From NCBI RefSeq assembly GCF_058153355.1, contig NZ_CM177019.1: DNA of 64,000 nucleotides; one strand, written 5' to 3'. Of the stretch, positions 2,005 through 64,000 are shown piece by piece. Each line of letters opens with the position of its first letter. Position 1 is the stretch's first letter. The position numbers and the translations under genes were made by a program. The notes under the pieces were generated by a model. The model made no database searches. It was given only the letters and a program-made list of their open reading frames with translations, and was not told the origin of the DNA.

Positions 2005-3411
2005 TCAGAAGATGGTGAATGGTGCGATTACCATAAATTTCACGTCACGCTCATCCTGGAAGATGTTGCCGTAACCACCGCCCCAGCTTGGGATGTCGGA
2101 GTGGTTGTCGTATTCGGTAAAGTGCAGTTTGAACATCGTGCCTTTGGCGCGACCGTCCTGAATGGTGTAGACCGCATCCAGGCTGTACGCAGACTCTTCA
2201 ATAGTCCGGTTCTTGTCGTAGTATGCATCCGGATTGCTCTGCCAGGTAGCGGGTTTAGCATCCCATGCGTAAACGTAGGAAGCGCCGATGGCGAAGCCTG
2301 GAAGATTCCAGTTTTTCAGGTCATACATCGCACCGAAGAAGACCGCTTTTTCGCCGTTGGCGTTGAAGTCAGAACGGTTATCCCACCAGATATCCAGGCG
2401 ACCGTTCGAGGAAGCATAGGTTGGAGTCATACGTTGCAGGAAGTATCCCTGCTGACCGTCGGCTTTAACCCAGGTGCCTTCCAGACGCAAATCCACTACG
2501 TCAGCCGCCCGGTAACCAAAGGTCAACGCTTGCAGCCAGGCAGTGCCGTCGTAAAGGTCGTTGACGCTGCGATCGTCAACTTTATCGCGCGTACCGTAGA
2601 ACTGGTAGCTGGTGGTTAACGGGCTACCGGCGATATCAAATTTATAGCTGGCTTTGGCAAAATACTGATCAATATACCCTTCCGCCTGACCAAACGCCGC
2701 TTCCAGTACGAAGTTATTTTTGAAGTCGTACTTCGCCCCAAGGGAGTGTAGATAATCAACTTTGGTGGTTTTATCGTTCTGATAAAACTCATCCATTTCC
2801 AGATGCCACGGCGCTTTATATTCGTTGGTCCACATGTAGGAGAAACTCAACGCACCAGCATCGCCGTAATCAAAATTCGCCCCCGCTTCCGCCCCCTGAT
2901 AAGTACCCGGCATAAAGCTCCAGTGCGGCGCTAACAGCGTCTGACCGGTTGGCTGAATATAACCTGCCCGCGCCCACACCGGACCGTATTTAAATTTGGC
3001 CGCTGCTTTATACAGGCTTATACCGCTTTTATCGCCGGACCAGTCTTCGTCATAGGCTTTATTGCTTTTTGAAAACGCGATTTCGTTCGGGTGAGAACTG
3101 TCGCCGTTTTCCGCCATTTCAATCGCCGTAAACGCCGCAATATCAAGGCCGAACATATCAGCAGCATAACCAGACTGAAAATCGAGGTTGGCGTTCCAGG
3201 TGGAATGAGAAAGGTTGGTTTTGTATTTGTCGCCGTCGGTAACGTCTTTACGGTCGCGTTCACGCTGCCAGTAATAGATACCGCCGGTTAAGGTTGAATC
3301 GTCGATGAATCCTTCGGCGCGAGCCTCCGGCATTGCCATAAAGCCCGACATTGCTGTAACACCGGCGATAGCCAGCGCCAGCGTACTACGTTTGCCACTA
3401 AACGTACGCAT
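2005..3411 (-). CDS. chiP: Chitoporin ChiP/YbfM (468 aa), OprD-family outer-membrane porin
   Basis: 468-aa ORF with signal peptide (...AMPEARAEG) and C-terminal beta-barrel signature ending ...IAPFTIF. Confidence 0.93.
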
Positions 3412-51603: not shown

Positions 51604-52245
51604 TTGTATCAGGATAAAATTCTTGTCCGCCAGCTCGGTCTTCAGCCTTACGAGCCAATCTCCCAGGCTATGCATGAATTCACCGATACCCGCGATGAAA
51701 GTACTCTTGATGAAATCTGGCTGGTCGAGCACTATCCGGTATTCACCCAAGGGCAGGCAGGAAAAGCGGAGCACATTTTAATGCCGGGCGATATTCCGGT
51801 GATCCAAAGCGATCGCGGTGGGCAGGTGACTTATCACGGGCCGGGGCAACAGGTGATGTATGTGTTGCTTAACCTGAAACGCCGTAAACTCGGTGTGCGT
51901 GAACTGGTGACCTTGCTCGAGCAAACAGTGGTGAATACCCTGGCTGAACTGGGTATAGAAGCGCATCCTCGGGCTGACGCGCCTGGTGTCTATGTCGGGG
52001 AAAAGAAAATTTGCTCACTGGGTTTACGTATTCGGCGCGGTTGTTCATTCCACGGTCTGGCATTAAACGTCAATATGGATCTTTCGCCATTTTTACGTAT
52101 TAATCCTTGTGGGTATGCCGGAATGGAAATGGCTAAAATATCACAATGGAGACCCGAAGCGACAACTAATAATATTGCACCGCGTTTGCTAGAAAATATT
52201 TTAGTGCTACTAAACAATCCCGACTTCGAATATATTACCGCTTAA
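51604..52245 (+). CDS. lipB: Octanoyltransferase LipB (213 aa)
   Basis: TTG start; (M)[25 protein letters not shown]...; catalytic Cys region KKICSLG. Confidence 0.93.
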
Positions 52246-52504
52246 TTATATACATCAATGGCCCAAATTACACTGGGTCATTACTCATAATACCTGCTAA
52301 TGCTTTACTTCTCCTTCGCGTTTGTATATTTTCTTTATCACTTGCAGAAATGCGATGCAATGCTTCGCTCCGTAACTCACCCCATTGATTAACTTATTGA
52401 AATAGTTGACTATGGTGAGCAAAAGCGTTCCATTCAAATTAGATATAAGATTATTGTAATTTTTTTAAATATTATTTTTCCATGAATAAAATTGGAGTAA
52501 GTGC

Positions 52505-53458
52505 GTGGATAGTAATAATCAAATTGAACCCTGTTTAAGCAGAAAGTCGTCAGAAGGTAAACCACAAATATTTACAACCTTACGAAATATTGATCTTAAC
52601 CTTCTAACTATTTTTGAAGCTGTATATGTACATAAAGGGATCGTTAATGCAGCGAAAGTGCTTAATCTGACCCCCTCGGCAATCAGTCAGTCTATTCAGA
52701 AACTGCGCGTTATATTCCCTGACCCATTGTTTATTCGCAAAGGCCAGGGGGTCACTCCTACCGCATTTGCGATGCATCTACATGAGTATATCAGTCAGGG
52801 CCTTGAATCCATTCTCGGCGCGCTGGATATCGAAGGAACCTATGATAAGCAACGAACGATAACTATCGCGACCACCCCCTCGGTCGGAGCCCTGGTCCTT
52901 CCAGTCATCTATCGCGCGATTAAAACTCATTATCCGCAGCTTTTACTGCGCAACCCCCCTATCAGCGACGCGGAAAGCCAACTCAGTCAGTTTCAAACCG
53001 ATCTCATCATTGATAACATGTTCTGCACCAATCGTACGGTACAACATCATGTTCTGTTCACCGACAATATGGTGTTAATTTGCCGCGAGGGAAATTCGCT
53101 ACTCTCCTTAGAAGATGACAGAGAGACTATCGAAAACGCTGCGCATATACTCCTGTTACCGGAAGGGCAAAATTTCAGCGGTCTGCGGCAGAGAGTTCAA
53201 GAGATGTTTCCGGACCGGCAAATCAGTTTCACCAGCTACAACATTTTGACAATCGCTGCACTGGTTGCCAACAGTGACATGTTAGCGATTATTCCCAGCC
53301 GTTTTTATAACCTGTTTAGCCGTTGCTGGCCGCTGGAAAAACTGCCTTTTCCGTCCTTAAATGAGGAGCAAGTAGATTTCTCTATCCACTACAACAAATT
53401 CAGCCTGCGAGATCCCATCCTGCACGGGGTAATAGATGTTATCCGTAATGCATTTTGA
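52505..53458 (+). CDS. ybeF: YbeF, LysR-type transcriptional regulator (317 aa)
   Basis: GTG start; N-terminal HTH (LNLLTIFEAVYVHKGIVNAAKVLNLTPSAISQSIQKLR). Confidence 0.88.
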   Translation: MDSNNQIEPCLSRKSSEGKPQIFTTLRNIDLNLLTIFEAVYVHKGIVNAAKVLNLTPSAISQSIQKLRVIFPDPLFIRKGQGVTPTAFAMHLHEYISQGLESILGALDIEGTYDKQRTITIATTPSVGALVLPVIYRAIKTHYPQLLLRNPPISDAESQLSQFQTDLIIDNMFCTNRTVQHHVLFTDNMVLICREGNSLLSLEDDRETIENAAHILLLPEGQNFSGLRQRVQEMFPDRQISFTSYNILTIAALVANSDMLAIIPSRFYNLFSRCWPLEKLPFPSLNEEQVDFSIHYNKFSLRDPILHGVIDVIRNAF

Positions 53459-53666
53459 AAAAGTATTGTTACAGCCAGATCACAGCGAAGAACGAAAAAA
53501 TGGCACAATCCAACAACAATTTTACATTTTCGCGACCGCTTTGGCTGCTTTCAGGTCCGTTTCAATGATATACTGCCAGTCGTTAATTCAAAAATAGTTG
53601 ATAATTACAACAATCTATTGAATTGAAACGCTTTCCTTCGTAATTCGCAACTGGAACACGCACGCT

Positions 53667-54632
53667 ATGAGTAAACCCATTGTGATGGAACGCGGTGTTA
53701 AATACCGCGATGCCGATAAGATGGCCCTTATCCCGGTTAAAAACGTGGCAACAGAGCGCGAAGCCCTGCTGCGCAAGCCGGAATGGATGAAAATCAAGCT
53801 TCCAGCGGACTCTACACGTATCCAGGGCATCAAAGCCGCAATGCGCAAAAATGGCCTGCATTCTGTCTGCGAGGAAGCCTCCTGCCCTAACCTGGCGGAA
53901 TGCTTCAACCACGGCACAGCAACGTTTATGATCCTCGGCGCTATTTGTACCCGCCGTTGTCCGTTCTGTGACGTTGCCCACGGTCGCCCGGTAGCTCCGG
54001 ATGCCAATGAACCAGTGAAACTGGCGCAGACCATTGCCGATATGGCGCTGCGTTATGTGGTTATCACCTCCGTTGACCGTGATGACCTGCGCGATGGCGG
54101 TGCCCAGCACTTTGCGGATTGCATTACTGCCATTCGGGAAAAAAGCCCGCAAATCAAAATTGAAACTCTGGTGCCGGATTTCCGCGGTCGTATGGATCGT
54201 GCTCTGGATATTCTGACCGCCACACCACCAGATGTGTTCAACCATAACCTGGAAAACGTACCGCGTATTTACCGTCAGGTACGGCCTGGTGCAGATTACA
54301 ACTGGTCGCTGAAGCTGCTGGAACGCTTTAAAGAAGCGCATCCGGAAATCCCGACCAAGTCTGGTCTGATGGTGGGTCTGGGTGAAACCAATGAAGAAAT
54401 TATTGAGGTAATGCGCGACCTGCGCCGTCATGGTGTGACGATGCTAACGCTGGGGCAATATTTGCAGCCAAGCCGCCATCACCTGCCGGTTCAACGTTAC
54501 GTTAGCCCGGATGAGTTCGACGAAATGAAAGCCGAAGCGCTGGCGATGGGCTTTACCCATGCTGCATGCGGTCCGTTTGTCCGCTCGTCTTACCACGCCG
54601 ATTTGCAGGCGAAAGGGATGGAAGTTAAGTAA
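53667..54632 (+). CDS. lipA: Lipoyl synthase LipA (321 aa)
   Basis: Radical-SAM CPFCDV plus auxiliary cluster cysteines ([12 protein letters not shown]). Confidence 0.97.
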
Positions 54633-54663
54633 TCCTGTAATAATTACTTACATCTGTCTGATA

Positions 54664-54694
54664 AAAAACCCGCTTTTTGAAGCGGGTTTTTTGT
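54664..54694. terminator. Bidirectional rho-independent terminator between lipA and tatE
   Basis: AAAAAACCCGCTTTTTGAAGCGGGTTTTTTG. Confidence 0.7.
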
Positions 54695-54732
54695 ATCGAA
54701 CAAGATATTGAGGGAGCGTCCTGCTCGCCACG

Positions 54733-54936
54733 TCACTCTTTATGAGAGAGCTTTTCAGCCTGAAGATCAACGTCTGCGCCTTTTTTCGCCGCAGCATCGT
54801 CATCATTCATCGCCTTCTTGAACCCTTTAATGGCCGCTCCAAGGTCTCCGCCCAGCGTACGTAACTTCTTAGTCCCAAACAGCAGAACGACCAGCGCCGC
54901 AACTACCAGCAGTTTGGTAATACTAATCTCCCCCAT
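54733..54936 (-). CDS. tatE: Twin-arginine translocase subunit TatE (67 aa)
   Basis: [33 protein letters not shown]... Confidence 0.93.
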
Positions 54937-55064
54937 AGATACCTTCTTGACATATAACCGGCAACAGAACGCGCCTTAAAAACCAGAGAATATTAACGGT
55001 CATTCGACGCGCGCACACAATAGCAATCTGTAACAAGGTGAATCAAGCACCGAGTAAAAAAACA

Positions 55065-55853
55065 TCATAATAATTGTGGCGGCGCAAAACGACGGTTGTT
55101 TAAGACGGGCAGTTGCGCGCGCACCTGACGCACACGTTCGGGCGTCACTTCCGCCATAATGAGTGCAGGCATTTCTGACGCTGCCGCAATGGTGACGCCA
55201 AAGGGATCTATAATCCGGCTTTGCCCGATATTTTTGTTCCCGCACTCCCCCGCCGCCACCATATAACAGGTGGTATCCAGCGCACGAGCGGCAAGCAACG
55301 TTGACCAGTGATGCTCTTTGAGCGGCCCGCGAACCCAGGCGGCAGGAAGTACCAGGATTTCAGCTCCCTGTAATGCCTGTGCCAGCGCCAGCTCTGGAAA
55401 GCGTAAGTCATAACAGGTCATCAGACCGACCTTCATCCCTTCCACCTCCAGTAACGGAGCTATTTCATTACCAGCATCAACATGGCGTGATTCCTGAATG
55501 GCAAATGCATCATAGAGATGCAGTTTGGCATAACGGGCGACGATGTTTCCTGCCTGTAGCGCCACCAGCATATTCCATGCGCGCCCCGGCGTTGAAGGAA
55601 CATGAATCGTCAGAATTGTCGTCATCATGTTACGTTTACTTTCTCGCCGTAAACGTCCGAGGAATTCGCCTTCCAGCAGCTGTGCTGATTTAACCGATAG
55701 ATCTGCATCATGATCATCACGCGCCAACAATGCTTCCGGCAGGACAAACAGCGAAACGTCGTTTTCCGCCGCCTGCGCCATCAACGAGGCACAAATCTCA
55801 GCGTTCTTTTCCCACACAGATGTAACAGCAAACTGTCCTGCGGCAACCAGCAT
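55065..55853 (-). CDS. ybeM: YbeM, nitrilase-superfamily (C-N hydrolase) protein, apparently intact (262 aa)
   Basis: ATG at 55853 after AGGAGGAGGTG gives [10 protein letters not shown]...; uninterrupted nitrilase-like ORF with catalytic-Cys region ([12 protein letters not shown]). Confidence 0.85.
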
Positions 55854-55948
55854 TGCCACCTCCTCCTGTCAGAGTCGTAAAATTCGCCAACGGCGATTAT
55901 TCGGCGTTACACTTATCACTCATACAAATCAAATAGCAGGATTTTGCA

Positions 55949-56332
55949 GTGTTACAACTTCTTTTAGCAGTTTTTATTGGCGGTGGTACGGGAAGCGTGG
56001 CGAGATGGCTGTTAAGTATGCGATTTAACCCGCTGCATCAGGCGATTCCGATGGGGACGCTGGCTGCAAACCTGATTGGGGCATTCATCATAGGAATGGG
56101 ATTCGCCTGTTTTAGCAGGATGACGAACATTGATCCAGTGTGGAAAGTATTAATCACCACCGGATTTTGTGGCGGTCTAACAACCTTCTCAACATTTTCG
56201 GCAGAAGTGGTGTTTTTGTTACAAGAGGGCCGCTTTGGCTGGGCATTACTGAACGTTTTCGTCAACCTTCTGGGGTCTTTTGCCATGACCGCACTGGCTT
56301 TCTGGCTGTTTTCGGCCTCAACCGCACACTAA
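55949..56332 (+). CDS. crcB: Fluoride channel CrcB/FluC (127 aa)
   Basis: GTG start; four-TM protein [20 protein letters not shown]... Confidence 0.92.
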
Positions 56333-56337
56333 AGACC

Positions 56338-56367
56338 AAAAAAAACCCGCTGATTAAGCGGGTTTTG
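56338..56367. terminator. Bidirectional terminator between crcB and cspE
   Basis: AAAAAAACCCGCTGATTAAGCGGGTTTTGAATT. Confidence 0.7.
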
Positions 56368-56385
56368 AATTCTTGCTGACGTATC

Positions 56386-56595
56386 TTACAGAGCGATTAC
56401 GTTTGCAGCAGAAGGGCCTTTGGCACCGTTAGTGATTTCGAACTCTACGCGCTGACCTTCAGCAAGAGTTTTAAAACCATTAGTCTGGATTGCAGAGAAG
56501 TGTACGAACACGTCTTTGCTGCCGTCTTCCGGAGTAATGAAACCGAATCCTTTGGACTCATTAAACCACTTAACGTTACCTTTAATCTTAGACAT
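56386..56595 (-). CDS. cspE: Cold-shock-domain protein CspE (69 aa)
   Basis: [37 protein letters not shown]... (RNP1/RNP2 motifs). Confidence 0.95.
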
Positions 56596-56769
56596 CAAAA
56601 TTACCTTTACATGAAAAATAGACACAAATGCTGTGTCGGTTACCAGTACACCAATTGTGGTACGCTTTGTCCAGTGCAACTTTACTAAAAAGTGATAAAA
56701 GTCGCGTTATTTTTGATGTTAATTATTTTACTCATTGATTTTAAAGAAGTTACTAAAATTTCATTTGTC

Positions 56770-57330
56770 TCAAAACTGAAAGCGCATCCAGGCAAAGTAC
56801 ACATTGCCATTGTTATAGGTACCCGGAATGTAGGTCATCTGAAAAGTCACTGGACCATAACCCACAGAGGCCAATGGCAGTAGAACCGGGAGAGGGATGT
56901 AATTCCAGTTATCGCGTGCCGTTACGCCAGCGGTGAATCCCAGTCCTAAATGAAAATTTTCATCCGCCAGCGGTCGCCAGGTACTTTCCCATCCGTATCC
57001 GGCAATCGGTTCCCATTTGTTCCACGAGTCCTTAAATGCCATGGCATACAGGCCATGCCAGTTTCCTTTTTCATCCCAACGCGACTGACCAAAACCGCCC
57101 CCCCACGGTCGCTCGTTATAGCGATCGGTTTTTTCTTTGTCGTAAGCGAAACGAGCATGCCAGGTGATGGCAGGAATATATAAATCATAATGTTCAGGCT
57201 GTTGCCAGGTTTGTGTAATATTTTCTCCAAACGTTGTCATCCACTCATCTGCGTTAGCTAAAACTTTACCAACGCTGATTAACTGAATAAAAACAAAGGA
57301 AAATATAGAGACATATTTACTCACGTTCAT
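56770..57330 (-). CDS. pagP: Lipid A palmitoyltransferase PagP/CrcA (186 aa)
   Basis: [30 protein letters not shown]... signal peptide and outer-membrane beta-barrel. Confidence 0.93.
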
Positions 57331-57919
57331 TTGTGACCATAAAACATTTATCAAAAATCTACTATTAGCATAGCAAAGCTACAATTAACATAACCTTAAT
57401 AGCCCCAACATAAAGAATAATCTGAATAGCTGCTCTATTTATTTCCGCTTGTTTAAGTTAAATATTTCCGCGCATCGATTAAAGATGATGCGTCGTTTTC
57501 TGCGATGGGAATAGTCAAAAAAGAAAAACCAAGTCTTTTTTGATGACAAAATGCAATCAAGGAAAAATTATTTTATTTTTTAACTAGATACAACAATCAT
57601 CTTAACGAAGTATATAATATATATCGTCAACCCATGCTCATGGTAGATTATTTTATGAGCACACAACCGCAGCTAACACCATTGCAATTAACAAATTTGC
57701 ATCAATCCACCATCAATTTACACACATTATTATGTGATAATTGCCAACCGCTAAATATGCGTTTTGTTATCTATGTATAAAAACAGCAACTTCAATGTCT
57801 TAATGGCAGTTTTTCTTGATTTTAATCAGCATTCACCGCCAATTTATTGGGCATATTTTTTTCCTTAAGCTTTAGGAATTTTTTATTATTTACTTTGGGG
57901 CCTGGAGACAGGAAAAATT

Positions 57920-59305
57920 ATGCTGACATTCATTGAACTCCTTATTGGGGTTGTGGTTATTGTGGGTGTAGCTCGCTACATCATTAAAGGGTATTCCGCC
58001 ACTGGCGTGTTATTTGTCGGTGGCCTGTTATTGCTGATTATCAGTGCCATTATGGGGCACAAAGTGTTACCGTCCAGCCAGGCTTCAACAGGCTACAGCG
58101 CCACGGATATCGTTGAATACGTTAAAATATTGCTAATGAGCCGCGGCGGCGACCTCGGCATGATGATTATGATGCTGTGTGGCTTTGCCGCTTACATGAC
58201 CCATATCGGCGCGAATGATATGGTGGTCAAGCTGGCGTCAAAACCATTGCAGTATATTAACTCCCCTTACCTGCTGATGATTGCCGCCTATTTTGTCGCC
58301 TGTCTGATGTCTCTGGCCGTCTCTTCCGCAACCGGTCTGGGTGTTTTGCTGATGGCAACCCTGTTTCCGGTGATGGTAAACGTTGGTATCAGCCGTGGTG
58401 CAGCTGCTGCTATTTGTGCCTCCCCGGCGGCGATTATTCTCGCACCGACTTCAGGGGATGTGGTGCTGGCGGCGCAGGCTTCCGAAATGTCGCTGATTGA
58501 CTTCGCCTTCAAAACGACGCTGCCTATCTCAATTGCTGCAATTATCGGCATGGCGATCGCCCACTTCTTCTGGCAACGTTATCTGGATAAAAAAGAGCAC
58601 ATCTCTCATGAAATGTTAGATGTCAGTGAAATCACCACCACTGCTCCTGCGTTTTATGCCATTTTGCCGTTCACGCCGATCATCGGAGTGCTGATTTTTG
58701 ACGGCAAATGGGGGCCGCAATTACACATCATCACTATTCTGGTGATTTGTATGCTGATTGCCTCCATTCTGGAGTTCATCCGCAGCTTTAATACCCAGAA
58801 AGTGTTCTCGGGCCTGGAAGTGGCTTATCGCGGGATGGCAGATGCGTTTGCTAACGTGGTGATGCTGCTGGTTGCCGCTGGGGTATTCGCTCAGGGGCTT
58901 AGCACCATCGGCTTTATTCAAAGTCTGATTTCTATCGCCACTTCGTTTGGTTCGGCGAGTATCATCCTGATGCTGGTATTGGTGATCCTGACAATGCTGG
59001 CGGCAGTCACGACCGGTTCAGGCAATGCGCCGTTTTATGCGTTTGTTGAGATGATCCCGAAACTGGCGCACTCTTCCGGCATTAACCCGGCGTATTTGAC
59101 TATCCCAATGCTGCAGGCGTCAAACCTCGGTCGTACCCTGTCACCCGTTTCTGGCGTAGTCGTTGCGGTTGCCGGGATGGCGAAAATCTCACCATTTGAA
59201 GTCGTAAAACGCACCTCGGTGCCGGTGCTTGTTGGGCTGGTGATTGTTATCGTTGCTACAGAGCTGATGGTGCCAGGAACGGCAGCCGCGGTCACAGGCA
59301 AGTAA
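57920..59305 (+). CDS. dcuC: Anaerobic C4-dicarboxylate transporter DcuC (461 aa)
   Basis: Polytopic DcuC-family protein of correct length. Confidence 0.93.
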   Translation: MLTFIELLIGVVVIVGVARYIIKGYSATGVLFVGGLLLLIISAIMGHKVLPSSQASTGYSATDIVEYVKILLMSRGGDLGMMIMMLCGFAAYMTHIGANDMVVKLASKPLQYINSPYLLMIAAYFVACLMSLAVSSATGLGVLLMATLFPVMVNVGISRGAAAAICASPAAIILAPTSGDVVLAAQASEMSLIDFAFKTTLPISIAAIIGMAIAHFFWQRYLDKKEHISHEMLDVSEITTTAPAFYAILPFTPIIGVLIFDGKWGPQLHIITILVICMLIASILEFIRSFNTQKVFSGLEVAYRGMADAFANVVMLLVAAGVFAQGLSTIGFIQSLISIATSFGSASIILMLVLVILTMLAAVTTGSGNAPFYAFVEMIPKLAHSSGINPAYLTIPMLQASNLGRTLSPVSGVVVAVAGMAKISPFEVVKRTSVPVLVGLVIVIVATELMVPGTAAAVTGK

Positions 59306-59313
59306 ATAGTCAT

Positions 59314-59340
59314 GCCGGAGGCAAGCTTCCTCCGGCTTTA
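59314..59340. terminator. Bidirectional terminator between dcuC and dpiA
   Basis: GCCGGAGGCAAGCTTCCTCCGGC hairpin followed by TTTATC. Confidence 0.55.
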
Positions 59341-59345
59341 TCATG

Positions 59346-60026
59346 TCACCCACTGTGGTATATGCGTTGCGGTCTGCCAACTTTGCCGTGAACAATTTCA
59401 GCAATAATCAGATGGCGGCTGGCGCAATATTCAAGATAACGTCTGGCAGTGGTGCGGCTGATAGTCAGTGCCTGCGCCACCGTTTCTGCCGTATGTTGCA
59501 CACCAGGCTCTTTAAACAGTTTTCGCACCGCGTTTAGCGTCAAGGGGTCAATGCCGGTCGGCAGTTCGTCTTTGGGTTCACCGCGAGCATAGGCATTAAA
59601 CATCTCATCGATTTGCTTCTGGCTGGCGCTATCAATACTTTCCAGCATATGTTTACGCTGGCGGAAACGGGTTAGCGTTTGCCCCAGCCGTTCATAGGCA
59701 ATTGGCTTAATGAGATAATCAAATACACCACAACGTACGGCTTCAGACACCGTTTCCATATCACTGGCTGCAGTGGTAAACACCACGTCGCCGGGATAAT
59801 GCGCCTGCACCAGTTCATGCAGTAAATTAATCCCTCTACCGTCAGGAAGATAGTTATCGAGCAAGATTAGCCCCGGCTTAAAACGCTCGATCATCATTCG
59901 GGCCTGCGCCAGGTTTCCCGCCAGTAATATCTGACTGAATCCGGGAATGTGACGAATATATTCCGCATGCATCTCTGCCAGCGGCGTTTCGTCCTCAACG
60001 ATCAATAGGGTTAATGGAGCTGTCAT
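59346..60026 (-). CDS. dpiA: DpiA/CitB response regulator (226 aa)
   Basis: Receiver domain (LIVEDETPLAEMH..., conserved Asp) plus C-terminal HTH. Confidence 0.92.
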   Translation of the reverse strand: MTAPLTLLIVEDETPLAEMHAEYIRHIPGFSQILLAGNLAQARMMIERFKPGLILLDNYLPDGRGINLLHELVQAHYPGDVVFTTAASDMETVSEAVRCGVFDYLIKPIAYERLGQTLTRFRQRKHMLESIDSASQKQIDEMFNAYARGEPKDELPTGIDPLTLNAVRKLFKEPGVQHTAETVAQALTISRTTARRYLEYCASRHLIIAEIVHGKVGRPQRIYHSG

Positions 60027-61653
60027 TAGGTTTCACTTTCGGAATATAGATTGAAAATAAGGTACCGCAGGGATCATTATCTTCGAGAGTGATAACACCA
60101 CCGCAGCGCGTTACGTAGCTGGCAATCAAGTACAACCCAATGCCATGTTCGCCGGGCTCGTCAGCACGCGTACTGACACCCTGCTCAAATATTTTGTCTC
60201 GTAGAGACTCTGGAACGCCGCAGCCCTGATCGGCGACTTCAATCACCACATCATCGCCTTCATCGCTGAGGAATAATTCAACGATCTTGTTTCCTTCATC
60301 GCTACGCAGGCTGGCTTCGAAGGCGTTATCAAGTAAATTGCCAATAATGGCTGCAAACTCGGTGCTGTCCAGTCCTGGCGGCAGTTGCGAAAGCTGACTT
60401 CCGGGGACGATGACCATTTTTAGCCCCAGTTCGCGGGCGCGCTGCACTTTACCAAAAAGCAGCCCCGCCACCTGGCGATCGGCAAACGCCTCGCGCAGGC
60501 TATCAATAAGCTGTTGCTGGGCCTGAGACTCCCCCTGCACCATCGCCAACACGCGATCATACTCTTTCATCTGCAACAGACCATTGAGCGTCGACATCCA
60601 ATTGAGATGCTCGTGTCGCAATGTGCGCAGGCTCTCGACGTATTGTTTAATTTGCGTCAGTTGTGCATTGAGGGTGGATATTTCGTCTTTACTACGAAAG
60701 CTGATAATGGCCCCCAGCAAATCATCACCAGAACGAATAGCTTCCCGGTTGGCAATAACGCTCAGACCGTTAAAGTTCGCCACCACATCCTGACGTTTTT
60801 CATCAATCTGTTCGGTAAAGAAATCGGCGGGCCTGACCACTTCAGCAATGGGTTTACCCAACCATTGCCGTCCGGGGGAACTTAGCCCCAGCATCTTTCT
60901 TGCGTTACGATTGATGGCGGTAATGTAACCGTGCGGATCCACCGCAATCAGCCCTTCATAAACCGAACTAAACAGCGCCTCTTGCTGACGGACCACGCGT
61001 GCGATTTGCTTTGGCTCCATGCCCATCATTTGCCGACGGATATGCGCGGCCAGGAACCACGACAGCAACATCAGAATCCCTAACAGCACGACAAACACGC
61101 CAGCCATCGGTAATAAAAACTCAGCCCGCCAGCTATCGATTTTACTCACCAGGTAGCCAATCGACACCACGCCGATGACTTTTCCATCGTCATCAAAGAT
61201 TGGCGTTTTGGCACGCATCGCCATGCCAATTGACCCTTTCCCGGTGATAAAGTAGCTCTCCCCTTTCTCCAGCGCGCCCGGTTTGGTGAACTGCATAGGA
61301 TAACCAATTTTCTCCGGATTAGGATGGTAAAGACGAATCGAGTGCCGATCGCCAATCACCACATAATCGAAATCAGTATCTCTTTGTAATTTGTCAGCGA
61401 TGGTCGCCAACCTCTTGTAGTCACGCGTTTTCACTGCGCTGATGATACTGTCATTAGAAGCAATAATTTTTGCCTGATTCATTGCCATGTCGCGCACATG
61501 AAGCGTTAAATAGTCCTCAAAACTGGCCGTAAAATATTGCGCCAGGGCTGCAATGACAAATATTGAGAACACCAGAATCAGCAAAAAGATACGCAGCGGA
61601 AATGCCAGTCTTTGGAAAAATGCAAACTGTTTATTCTCGTTAAGCTGCAACAT
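59995..61653 (-). CDS. dpiB: DpiB/CitA citrate-sensing histidine kinase (552 aa)
   Basis: ATG at 61653 after AAGGAAAAC gives MLQLNENKQFAFFQRL...; periplasmic PAS, H-box (LRHEHLNW) and HATPase; 3' end overlaps dpiA by 32 nt. Confidence 0.9.
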   Translation of the reverse strand: MLQLNENKQFAFFQRLAFPLRIFLLILVFSIFVIAALAQYFTASFEDYLTLHVRDMAMNQAKIIASNDSIISAVKTRDYKRLATIADKLQRDTDFDYVVIGDRHSIRLYHPNPEKIGYPMQFTKPGALEKGESYFITGKGSIGMAMRAKTPIFDDDGKVIGVVSIGYLVSKIDSWRAEFLLPMAGVFVVLLGILMLLSWFLAAHIRRQMMGMEPKQIARVVRQQEALFSSVYEGLIAVDPHGYITAINRNARKMLGLSSPGRQWLGKPIAEVVRPADFFTEQIDEKRQDVVANFNGLSVIANREAIRSGDDLLGAIISFRSKDEISTLNAQLTQIKQYVESLRTLRHEHLNWMSTLNGLLQMKEYDRVLAMVQGESQAQQQLIDSLREAFADRQVAGLLFGKVQRARELGLKMVIVPGSQLSQLPPGLDSTEFAAIIGNLLDNAFEASLRSDEGNKIVELFLSDEGDDVVIEVADQGCGVPESLRDKIFEQGVSTRADEPGEHGIGLYLIASYVTRCGGVITLEDNDPCGTLFSIYIPKVKPNDSSINPIDR

Positions 61654-61754
61654 TGTTTTCCTTGCGGGTTGTCCCGAGCCTCTTTGACGGATGTAATTAA
61701 AATGTTGAATCAAAATACATAGATATTAAATATAATCGTGGCAAATTTTATTCA

Positions 61755-61787
61755 TTAAATCAATTAAATCAATTAAATCACTTAAAC
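61755..61787. repeat. Tandem AT-rich decamer repeats in the dpiB-citC control region
   Basis: TTAAATCAATTAAATCAATTAAATCACTTAAA, about three copies of TTAAATCAAT. Confidence 0.5.
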
Positions 61788-62041
61788 CTGCGGGTCATTT
61801 CGTAATTACATTAATTAAAAAACTTAAAACCATTAAATAAATAAAAAACCACTAACTCTATGTGAAATAAATCAAAATTTCACGCTGCAATACTCCTTAG
61901 GATGTATAGCGAAAGGAGAAAAAGATATACCTCGATCGCCCCCCTTTCTCCCAAGTGAAAATAAAAGGTTATCAATTTGCAACATCGAACAACATTCGTT
62001 GCAAATCGATAACAACATGCACCTTCAGGATACTATTTATT

Positions 62042-63100
62042 ATGTTCGGCAATGATATTTTCACCCGTGTAAAACGTTCAGAAAATAAAAAAATGGCGGA
62101 AATCGCCCAATTCCTGCATGAAAATGATTTGAGCGTTGACACCACAGTCGAAGTATTTATTACCGTAACCCGCGATGAAAAGCTTATCGCGTGCGGTGGA
62201 ATTGCCGGAAATATTATTAAATGCGTTGCTATCAGTGAATCCGTTCGCGGTGAAGGACTGGCGCTGACATTAGCCACTGAATTGATAAACCTCGCCTATG
62301 AGCGGCACAGCACGCATCTGTTTATTTATACCAAAACCGAATACGAGGCGCTGTTCCGCCAGTGCGGTTTTTCCACGCTGACCAGTGTACCCGGCGTGAT
62401 GGTGCTGATGGAAAACAGCGCCACGCGACTGAAACGCTATGCCGAATCGCTGAAAAAATTTCGTCATCCAGGGAACAAGATTGGCTGCATTGTGATGAAC
62501 GCCAATCCCTTTACGAATGGTCACCGTTATCTGATTCAACAGGCTGCAGCACAGTGCGACTGGTTGCACCTGTTTTTAGTTAAAGAAGATTCTTCACGCT
62601 TTCCCTATGAAGACCGGCTGGATCTGGTGTTAAAAGGCACCGCCGATATTCCACGCCTGACTGTGCATCGCGGCTCCGAATACATCATCTCCCGCGCTAC
62701 GTTCCCTTGCTACTTCATTAAAGAACAGAGCGTCATTAACCATTGTTACACCGAAATTGATCTGAAGATTTTCCGTCAGTACCTCGCTCCCGCGCTGGGT
62801 GTAACTCACCGCTTTGTCGGTACTGAACCCTTTTGTCGCGTTACCGCCCAGTACAACCAGGATATGCGCTACTGGCTGGAAACGCCGACTATCTCCGCAC
62901 CGCCCATCGAACTGGTTGAAATTGAGCGGCTGCGTTACCAGGAGATGCCGATATCCGCTTCCCGGGTACGTCAACTGCTGGCGAAAAACGATCTCACGGC
63001 TATCGCGCCGCTGGTCCCTGCAGTCACGCTGCATTATTTGCAGAACCTGCTTGAGCACTCCCGCCAGGACGCGGCAGCTCGTCAAAAGACCCCCGCATGA
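62042..63100 (+). CDS. citC: [Citrate (pro-3S)-lyase] ligase CitC (352 aa)
   Basis: MFGNDIFTRVKRSENKKMAEIAQFLHENDL... from ATG at 62042; GNAT-like N-terminus and nucleotidyltransferase region. Confidence 0.9.
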   Translation: MFGNDIFTRVKRSENKKMAEIAQFLHENDLSVDTTVEVFITVTRDEKLIACGGIAGNIIKCVAISESVRGEGLALTLATELINLAYERHSTHLFIYTKTEYEALFRQCGFSTLTSVPGVMVLMENSATRLKRYAESLKKFRHPGNKIGCIVMNANPFTNGHRYLIQQAAAQCDWLHLFLVKEDSSRFPYEDRLDLVLKGTADIPRLTVHRGSEYIISRATFPCYFIKEQSVINHCYTEIDLKIFRQYLAPALGVTHRFVGTEPFCRVTAQYNQDMRYWLETPTISAPPIELVEIERLRYQEMPISASRVRQLLAKNDLTAIAPLVPAVTLHYLQNLLEHSRQDAAARQKTPA

Positions 63101-63114
63101 GAAACAGGTGAAAA

Positions 63115-63411
63115 ATGAAAATAAACCAGCCCGCCGTTGCAGGCACCCTTGAGTCTGGGGATGTGATGATACGCATCGCCCCACTCGATACGCAGGATAT
63201 CGACCTGCAAATCAACAGCAGCGTTGAAAAACAGTTTGGTGATGCCATTCGCACCACCATTCTGGACGTTCTCGCCCGCTACAACGTGCGCGGCGTACAG
63301 CTGAATGTCGATGACAAAGGCGCACTGGACTGCATTTTACGTGCACGACTGGAAGCCCTGCTGGCACGCGCCAGCGGTATCCCGGCTCTGCCATGGGAGG
63401 ATTGCCAATGA
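63115..63411 (+). CDS. citD: Citrate lyase acyl carrier protein (gamma subunit) CitD (98 aa)
   Basis: [25 protein letters not shown]...; Ser in ESGDV region is the prosthetic-group attachment site. Confidence 0.93.
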
Positions 63412-64000
63412 TTTCCGCTTCGCTGCAACAACGTAAAACTCGCACCCGCCGCAGCATGTTGTTTGTGCCTGGTGCCAATGCCGCGATGGTCAGCAACTCA
63501 TTCATCTACCCGGCTGATGCCCTGATGTTTGACCTCGAAGACTCCGTAGCATTACGTGAAAAAGACACCGCCCGCCGCATGGTTTACCACGCGCTGCAAC
63601 ATCCGCTGTATCGCGATATTGAAACCATTGTGCGTGTAAACGCGCTGGATTCCGAATGGGGTGTCAACGACCTGGAAGCCGTCGTTCGCGGTGGTGCGGA
63701 CGTTGTGCGTCTGCCGAAAACCGATACCGCTCAGGATGTTCTGGATATCGAAAAAGAGATCCTGCGTATCGAAAAAGCCTGTGGTCGTGAACCCGGCAGT
63801 ACCGGCTTGCTGGCGGCGATTGAATCTCCGCTGGGCATTACCCGCGCAGTGGAAATCGCTCACGCTTCCGAGCGTTTGATCGGTATCGCCCTCGGTGCAG
63901 AAGACTATGTGCGCAACCTGCGTACAGAACGCTCCCCGGAAGGAACTGAACTGCTGTTCGCTCGCTGCTCCATTTTGCAGGCCGCGCGATCTGCGGGTAT
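63408..64000 (+). CDS. citE: Citrate lyase beta subunit CitE, 5' part (3' end outside window)
   Basis: ATG overlaps citD stop (ATGA); [47 protein letters not shown]... (HpcH/HpaI aldolase-like); frame remains open to the window end. Confidence 0.9.

Follow-up and report, generated by a model that had tools for sequence, protein, structure and literature searches.

In Escherichia coli, the region between the divergent dpiB and citC genes is the textbook site from which citrate fermentation is controlled, and the binding of the response regulator DpiA (CitB) to it is already part of the published record. Yamamoto et al. in 2008 and Scheu et al. in 2012 reportedly located a DpiA (CitB) binding region between citC and dpiB of K-12, and the same binding region is annotated in EcoCyc and RegulonDB. 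For Klebsiella pneumoniae, Meyer, Dimroth and Bott are said to have described, in 1997 and 2001, the control of the divergent citS and citC operons by CitB and CRP. The cit promoters of that organism require phosphorylated CitB together with CRP, with the regulator acting on AT-rich targets between the divergent operons (PMC2735749); the divergent partner there is citS-oadGAB-citAB, whereas in the locus described here it is the kinase gene itself. A more distant precedent comes from Lactobacillus casei, where the CitB-family regulator MaeR protects a stretch of a divergent promoter region that holds three tandem, same-orientation AT-rich direct repeats, TTATT(A/T)AA; mutating the first two abolishes binding and the promoter-distal third contributes the least (PMC5457438). 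MaeR differs from DpiA in motif and organism, in the spacing of its repeats, which is variable between species, and in a kinase partner that is non-canonical. DpiA itself also binds the iterated AT-rich 13-mers of oriC (PMC4285127).

The window (the whole stretch of 64,000 nucleotides analysed here) carries such a control region in an Escherichia coli-like genome. Its last 4.7 kb encode DcuC, DpiA, DpiB and CitC, with full-length NCBIfam equivalog matches for all four, and the locus is arranged as follows.

57920-59305, plus strand: DcuC, full-length NCBIfam equivalog match.
59346-60026, minus strand: dpiA (citB), response regulator combining a receiver domain with a DNA-binding domain of the DpiA-like HTH_64 type (NCBIfam NF007467 DpiA, 520 bits, full length; Pfam PF00072 and PF20714).
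59995-61653, minus strand: dpiB (citA), citrate sensor histidine kinase of 552 aa from the ATG at 61653 (NCBIfam NF011627 DpiB, 1-552 of 552; RefSeq orthologue annotation).
61654-62041, no strand: divergent dpiB/citC control region, 388 bp, GC 31%.
62042-63100, plus strand: citC, [citrate (pro-3S)-lyase] ligase, first gene of the citCDEFXGT operon (TIGR00124, 594 bits; RefSeq annotation).

An earlier note on this DNA had described an AT-rich, divergent dpiB-citC region of 388 bp, and both points were confirmed. The ATG codons of dpiB (61653, minus strand) and citC (62042, plus strand) enclose 61654-62041, and the GC content of 31% over all 388 bp compares with about 50% in the flanking genes; it is 23% over the 200 bp at 61700-61899 and 21% at 61692-61860. 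Of 5426 complete E. coli genomes, 5419 are annotated with these genes in the same arrangement, and K-12 MG1655 has it too. The closest described system is accordingly the K-12 citC-dpiB (citA) DpiA region, which shares the locus and its flanking genes at about 97% sequence identity and differs in a few SNPs, in one repeat unit (see below) and in a run of C at 61940-61945, which is 6 C long in the window, in O157 and in strain EC42405 and 5 C long in K-12 and in strains with a single repeat unit. Over the 12-kb stretch 52000-64000 the identity to any of the 5426 genomes does not exceed 99.4%, most of them lying at 95-99%, and to judge from these values the lineage of the window is absent from that set.

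Tandem Repeats Finder detects a repeat at 61754-61786 with a period of 9, 3.7 copies, 95% matches and a score of 59. Together with direct reading of the sequence, this gives the following units.

61754-61762, 61763-61771 and 61772-61780, plus strand: three perfect tandem 9-bp units, ATTAAATCA.
61781-61789, plus strand: degenerate fourth unit, CTTAAACCT, with 6 of 9 bases matching; it is the last unit of what we call array 1.

The repeat had been described before as about three tandem decamers near 61755-61787. Its tandem nature and its position hold good, whereas the period of 10 had to be given up in favour of the 9-mer. There are just two matches to the decamer TTAAATCAAT, at 61755 and 61764, and since these overlap by one base, the decamer is a product of reading across the unit boundary; on this ground, and on the period of 9 found by Tandem Repeats Finder, a period-10 repeat was ruled out. 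The perfect period-9 run of 27 bp amounts to 18 consecutive lag-9 matches, a value reached by none of 5000 dinucleotide-preserving shuffles of the intergenic region (shuffle maximum 17). For the unit ATTAAATCA, 4 copies in the 64-kb window compare with 0.76 expected, and the pattern TTAAA-N4-TTAAA-N4-TTAAA, allowing at most one mismatch, is found 5 times against 0.01 expected, with all five occurrences within 61755-61846. The 9-bp repeat is more than a chance product of AT-richness. The further ATTAAA-rich stretches that had been noticed are also there, as the intergenic region contains TTAAA 9 times on the plus strand and 0 times on the minus strand. Three of these, at 61697, 61726 and 61755, are spaced 29 bp apart.

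The surroundings of the repeat were compared across genera. With CitC as the query, a scan covering one genome of each species yielded 80 loci, about 46 of which have dpiB divergent from citC and an intergenic region of similar length; 26 orthologous regions, from Escherichia species, Citrobacter, Salmonella, Intestinirhabdus, Hafnia and an Enterobacter, were aligned with the window, and conservation was scored for each block as the mean majority frequency in this alignment. The alignment consists of sharp-edged conserved blocks with drifting spacers between them.

61692-61706, no strand: conserved block a, TGTAATTAAAATGTT, near dpiB; conservation 0.93, against 0.57-0.58 in its flanks.
61734-61747, no strand: conserved block b, AATCGTGGCAAATT (GATCGTTACAGATT in other genera); conservation 0.90 (columns 61735-61748).
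61754-61789, plus strand: array 1, units 1-3 and the degenerate fourth, promoter-distal half of the published DpiA region; conservation 0.89.
61790-61809, no strand: inter-array spacer, poorly conserved at 0.65; 45% of window bases common with non-Escherichia genera (columns 61789-61810).
61810-61850, plus strand: array 2, promoter-proximal half of the published DpiA region, with TTAAA-like motifs at 61815, 61824 and 61833 and TAAAA at 61842; conservation 0.92 (columns 61811-61851).
61861-61876, no strand: CRP-like site by sequence match, TGTGA-N6-TCAAA, almost invariant across genera; conservation 0.98.
61890-61908: AATACTCCTTAsGATGTAT; conservation 0.93.

Both arrays are built from the motif T(T/A)AA(A/G), always in the same orientation and at a spacing of 9 bp, in array 2 as in array 1. 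The array 2 motif at 61824 lies 42 bp from its counterpart at 61782 in array 1, and the 43-nt stretches 61753-61795 and 61795-61837 align with each other at 67-74% identity with the same 42-bp offset (repeat finder, family D1). The control region can therefore be described as two similar modules; about four helical turns separate their equivalent motifs, which thus lie on the same side of the DNA. Within an array, the spacing of 9 bp falls short of the helical repeat of 10.5 bp, so that more than two adjacent motifs cannot all be contacted from one face, and this counts against the operator reading given below.

These two arrays coincide with the region to which DpiA binding has been assigned. 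In PMC10610042, with reference to Scheu et al. 2012, DpiA binding in K-12 is assigned to a site 190-280 bp ahead of the citC start codon; mapped by alignment, this span corresponds to K-12 intergenic positions 99-189 and to 61752-61851 of the window. On this mapping, the region begins 2 bp before the first repeat unit, and with the first TTAAA of array 1 starting at K-12 intergenic position 102 and array 2 ending at 184-188, it is bounded almost exactly by the two arrays. The earlier note had named this region as the DpiA target at the cit promoter, and the second-hand K-12 coordinates agree with it. Functional data exist for Citrobacter rodentium, where the DpiA sites of the citC promoter were located by alignment to the K-12 EcoCyc annotation and where, once those sites had been truncated, the promoter no longer responded to citrate in an E. 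coli host (PMC12405535). The truncation primer of that study starts at the equivalent of 61849, directly after array 2, and retains the CRP-like site and the core promoter; blocks a and b are therefore lost along with both arrays, and the effect of the 9-mers is not isolated. For a K-12 line evolved under amoxicillin, the sole mutation reported is the loss of one base pair 193 bp upstream of citC (PMC10610042). This deletion, at K-12 position 652049, corresponds to 61848 of the window and lies within the run of A that closes array 2 on the promoter side.

Considering the coincidence with the published region and the conservation of both arrays, we read the array at 61754-61789 as the promoter-distal half of a two-part DpiA (CitB) operator in the divergent dpiB/citC region, and put the probability of this reading at about 0.8. 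Phosphorylated DpiA would bind the same-orientation direct repeats head to tail, each T(T/A)AA(A/G) motif providing one contact for a DpiA DNA-binding domain. The earlier proposal that the iterated repeats are DpiA binding units is reasonable in this light, and conservation and the precedent of the regulator family make the 9-bp units candidates for that role.

The comparison across genera bears directly on this reading. Over the 46 loci, which represent about 16 genera, the distances between TTAAA pairs on the same strand peak at 9 (101 pairs), 18 (47), 42 (54) and 33 (29), and the distances on the opposite strand are flat; the motif itself is counted 243 times on one strand and 78 times on the other. 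Same-orientation AT-rich repeats with a fixed short spacing, conserved as the 9- and 18-bp peaks over 46 loci, are what is expected of a CitB/DcuR-family operator. Array 1 of other genera reads xTTAAATCA ATTAAACAA ATTAAAACC, that is, three diverged units with their TTAAA cores kept in phase. Even Providencia, whose DpiB is only about 60% identical, retains the 9/9/33 layout, and ahead of citC, array 2 and the CRP-like site persist in loci of Serratia, Ewingella and Hafnia psychrotolerans that have no adjacent dpiB. A single Klebsiella locus (L074) was retrieved; its upstream gene differs, phased motifs are absent from it, and it is uninformative. As a separate observation, the loci L062, L065 and L061 (Ewingella americana, Hafnia psychrotolerans and an Enterobacterales MAG) carry two or three direct repeats of about 36 bp, TAATTAATTAAC(T/G)CCATAAACTCCAC..., upstream of the CRP-like site, and these appear to be a multiplied version of the operator module.

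The same material has to be weighed against the view that the AT-rich arrays play a structural part, either through an intrinsic bend or as binding sites for nucleoid proteins such as H-NS, Fis or IHF, and that DpiA attaches to them merely through a preference for AT. A GC content of 21-23% over about 170 bp is in keeping with such a role, as is the report of DpiA on generic AT-rich 13-mers at replication origins. The strand bias of the motif, in the window as well as over the 46 loci, argues against it, and so does the sharp 9-bp phase, whereas intrinsic bending needs 10-11 bp. The TTAAA cores are conserved while the inter-array spacer drifts, the IHF consensus WATCAANNNNTTR has no match in the control region, and what is lost on removal of the region from the C. 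rodentium promoter is a citrate-specific response. A search upstream of other DpiA targets, which the earlier note had proposed, gives a different picture. With mdh, appY and exuT, which we take to be further DpiA targets in K-12, no 9-bp-phased T[TA]AA[AG] pair was found on either strand upstream of mdh, appY or exuT/exuR; as these genes are presumed targets, the result carries little weight. It would fit structural DNA, and it may equally mean that DpiA recognition is looser at those genes or that they are not DpiA targets. On balance we consider a purely structural role unlikely, although an AT-binding protein other than DpiA could account in part for the conservation of the arrays.

Downstream of the DpiA operator proposed here, the elements of a citC promoter can be predicted at well-conserved positions.

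61891-61897, plus strand: NarL-like heptamer TACTCCT (consensus TACYYMT), abutting the predicted -10, within the conserved block 61890-61908.
61898-61903, plus strand: predicted citC -10 hexamer TAGGAT (TACGAT in other genera), inferred from the sequence and the alignment.
61968-62013, no strand: 16-nt inverted repeat in the predicted citC leader, arms 61968-61983 and 61998-62013, 14-nt loop, 94% complementary (repeat pair I2).

The citC transcript is predicted to start at about 61910. The CRP-like site is centred at 61868.5, which equals -41.5 only if this predicted start is right; it would then occupy a class II CRP position, with array 2 at about -96 to -61 and array 1 at about -156 to -122. 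Involvement of CRP has been reported (PMC2735749, PMC12405535), and in the window the conserved CRP-like site adjoins the arrays. DpiA would activate the citC promoter together with CRP at about -41.5. Inhibition by nitrate and cross-regulation by NarL have also been reported (PMC12405535); a heptamer of NarL consensus abutting the -10 would explain the nitrate repression, with NarL over the -10 shutting the promoter off in nitrate. The arms of the inverted repeat in the leader read GTTATCAATTTGCAAC and GTTGCAAATCGATAAC, and the GTTATCA of the left arm is conserved across genera along with the CAACA/GCAACAA motifs. This inverted repeat could be an operator or an mRNA hairpin; a search of 61400-62300 against Rfam gave no family match at E-values up to 1.

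The same DpiA sites probably serve the divergent dpiB promoter as well. Block a is possibly part of that promoter, and no obvious sigma-70 promoter fits blocks a and b on the dpiB side. One could suppose instead that the repeat junctions are themselves kept as -35 hexamers (TTGATT, minus strand) of the dpiB promoter, since a consensus scan pairs TTGATT at 61772-61767 over a 16-nt spacer with TAAAAT ending at 61745 on the minus strand, 9 of 12 positions matching. The region holds 2 such promoter-like sites against 2.5 expected by chance, the TAAAAT -10 is missing in Citrobacter, Salmonella and Hafnia (GGGGAATCT there) despite conserved repeats, and array 2 would be left unexplained. Such a promoter is therefore very unlikely to be the reason for the repeats, and it was rejected on the number of sites and the unconserved -10.

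What sets the window apart from K-12 is the number of units, a point that the earlier note had not raised. K-12 has two perfect ATTAAATCA units and the window has three; alignment with K-12, O157:H7 and EC42405 shows exactly one 9-bp unit more in the window, the gap being placed at 61754-61762, although which of the units is the extra one is indistinguishable. The 5426 complete E. coli genomes were searched with the three-unit, the two-unit and a synthetic four-unit allele. The region is present in 5371 genomes, and of these about 5355 carry two full units (99.7% of E. coli genomes), 14 carry three (L26, 23CRST011 and 12 O145 strains), 2 carry one (2-331 and DETEC-E223) and none carries four; the synthetic four-unit allele matched in 0 of the 5426. 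With 1, 2 or 3 units among E. coli strains, the array behaves as a variable-number tandem repeat. Larger changes were seen at this locus too. A 111-bp operator segment is missing from 55 of the 5426 genomes, and in the BL21(DE3) assembly NZ_CP081489.1 (L091, locus 2757-3070) the junction between citC and sgcR lies about 70 bp before the citC ATG, so that the DpiA operator and dpiBA no longer adjoin the cit operon; this junction points to a rearrangement breakpoint within the control region.

The third perfect unit is best seen as a slipped-strand duplication of one 9-bp unit. Apart from it, the intergenic region of the window is identical to that of the two-unit strain EC42405, whereas the three-unit O145 and L26 strains carry other flanking SNPs and end array 1 with the partial unit ATTAAAC in place of the CTTAAAC of the window. 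The extra unit of the window is therefore an independent gain, and the different flanking SNPs among three-unit strains indicate that such gains have recurred. All 12 O145 genomes have three units, which shows a copy number that is stable within the clone, without rapid switching. Short tandem units in a control region, with a strain-dependent copy number, are also known from the contingency loci of Neisseria and Haemophilus, but the present locus has only 1-3 units, the same number in 99.7% of genomes and clonal stability in O145; a phase-variable contingency locus was rejected on the last two of these.

The extra unit has two consequences for the layout. It adds a further potential DpiA contact to the far end of array 1, and it lengthens by 9 bp the distance that separates array 2 and the CRP-like site from blocks a and b and from the elements that drive dpiB. 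We give an even chance to the explanation that the extra unit, and perhaps also the Escherichia-specific perfect homogenisation of units 1 and 2, reflects neutral replication slippage at the edge of the operator, the copy number being irrelevant to regulation. Natural strains do vary, with one, two and three units in 2, about 5355 and 14 of the 5371 genomes, and the gains are recurrent, as seen from a window that equals EC42405 plus one unit and from the differing SNPs around the units of O145 and L26. Perfect identity between units is evidently unneeded, as those of other genera have diverged (ATTAAATCA ATTAAACAA ATTAAAACC), and a tandem duplication leaves the local geometry unchanged at either end of the array. 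Against neutrality stand the three-motif layout, which is conserved across genera, and the uniformity of the copy number, as two units in 99.7% of genomes and four in none fit selection on copy number at least equally well as a low rate of slippage. This explanation concerns the extra unit only and is compatible with the arrays being a DpiA operator.

As a discovery the region carries little weight, and what is added here is the correction of the unit to 9 bp, the comparative picture of the operator and a rare gain of one unit. From Escherichia to Providencia this picture is one of two same-orientation TTAAA arrays, with 9 bp between motifs within an array and 42 bp between equivalent motifs of the two arrays, and it provides a concrete, testable model of DpiA recognition. 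The rare natural alleles with one, two and three copies are ready-made material on the number of regulator contacts. It is conceivable, if distinctly doubtful, that the DpiBA circuit is naturally tuned by the number of units, one DpiA contact gained or lost and a 9-bp shift of the dpiB-side elements (about 51 degrees short of a full helical turn) altering basal or induced expression of dpiBA and citCDEFXGT. If this were true, it would explain why variant alleles recur and yet stay rare, and it would bear on citrate fermentation in the gut and, by way of the reported link of DpiA to the SOS response, on tolerance to beta-lactams.
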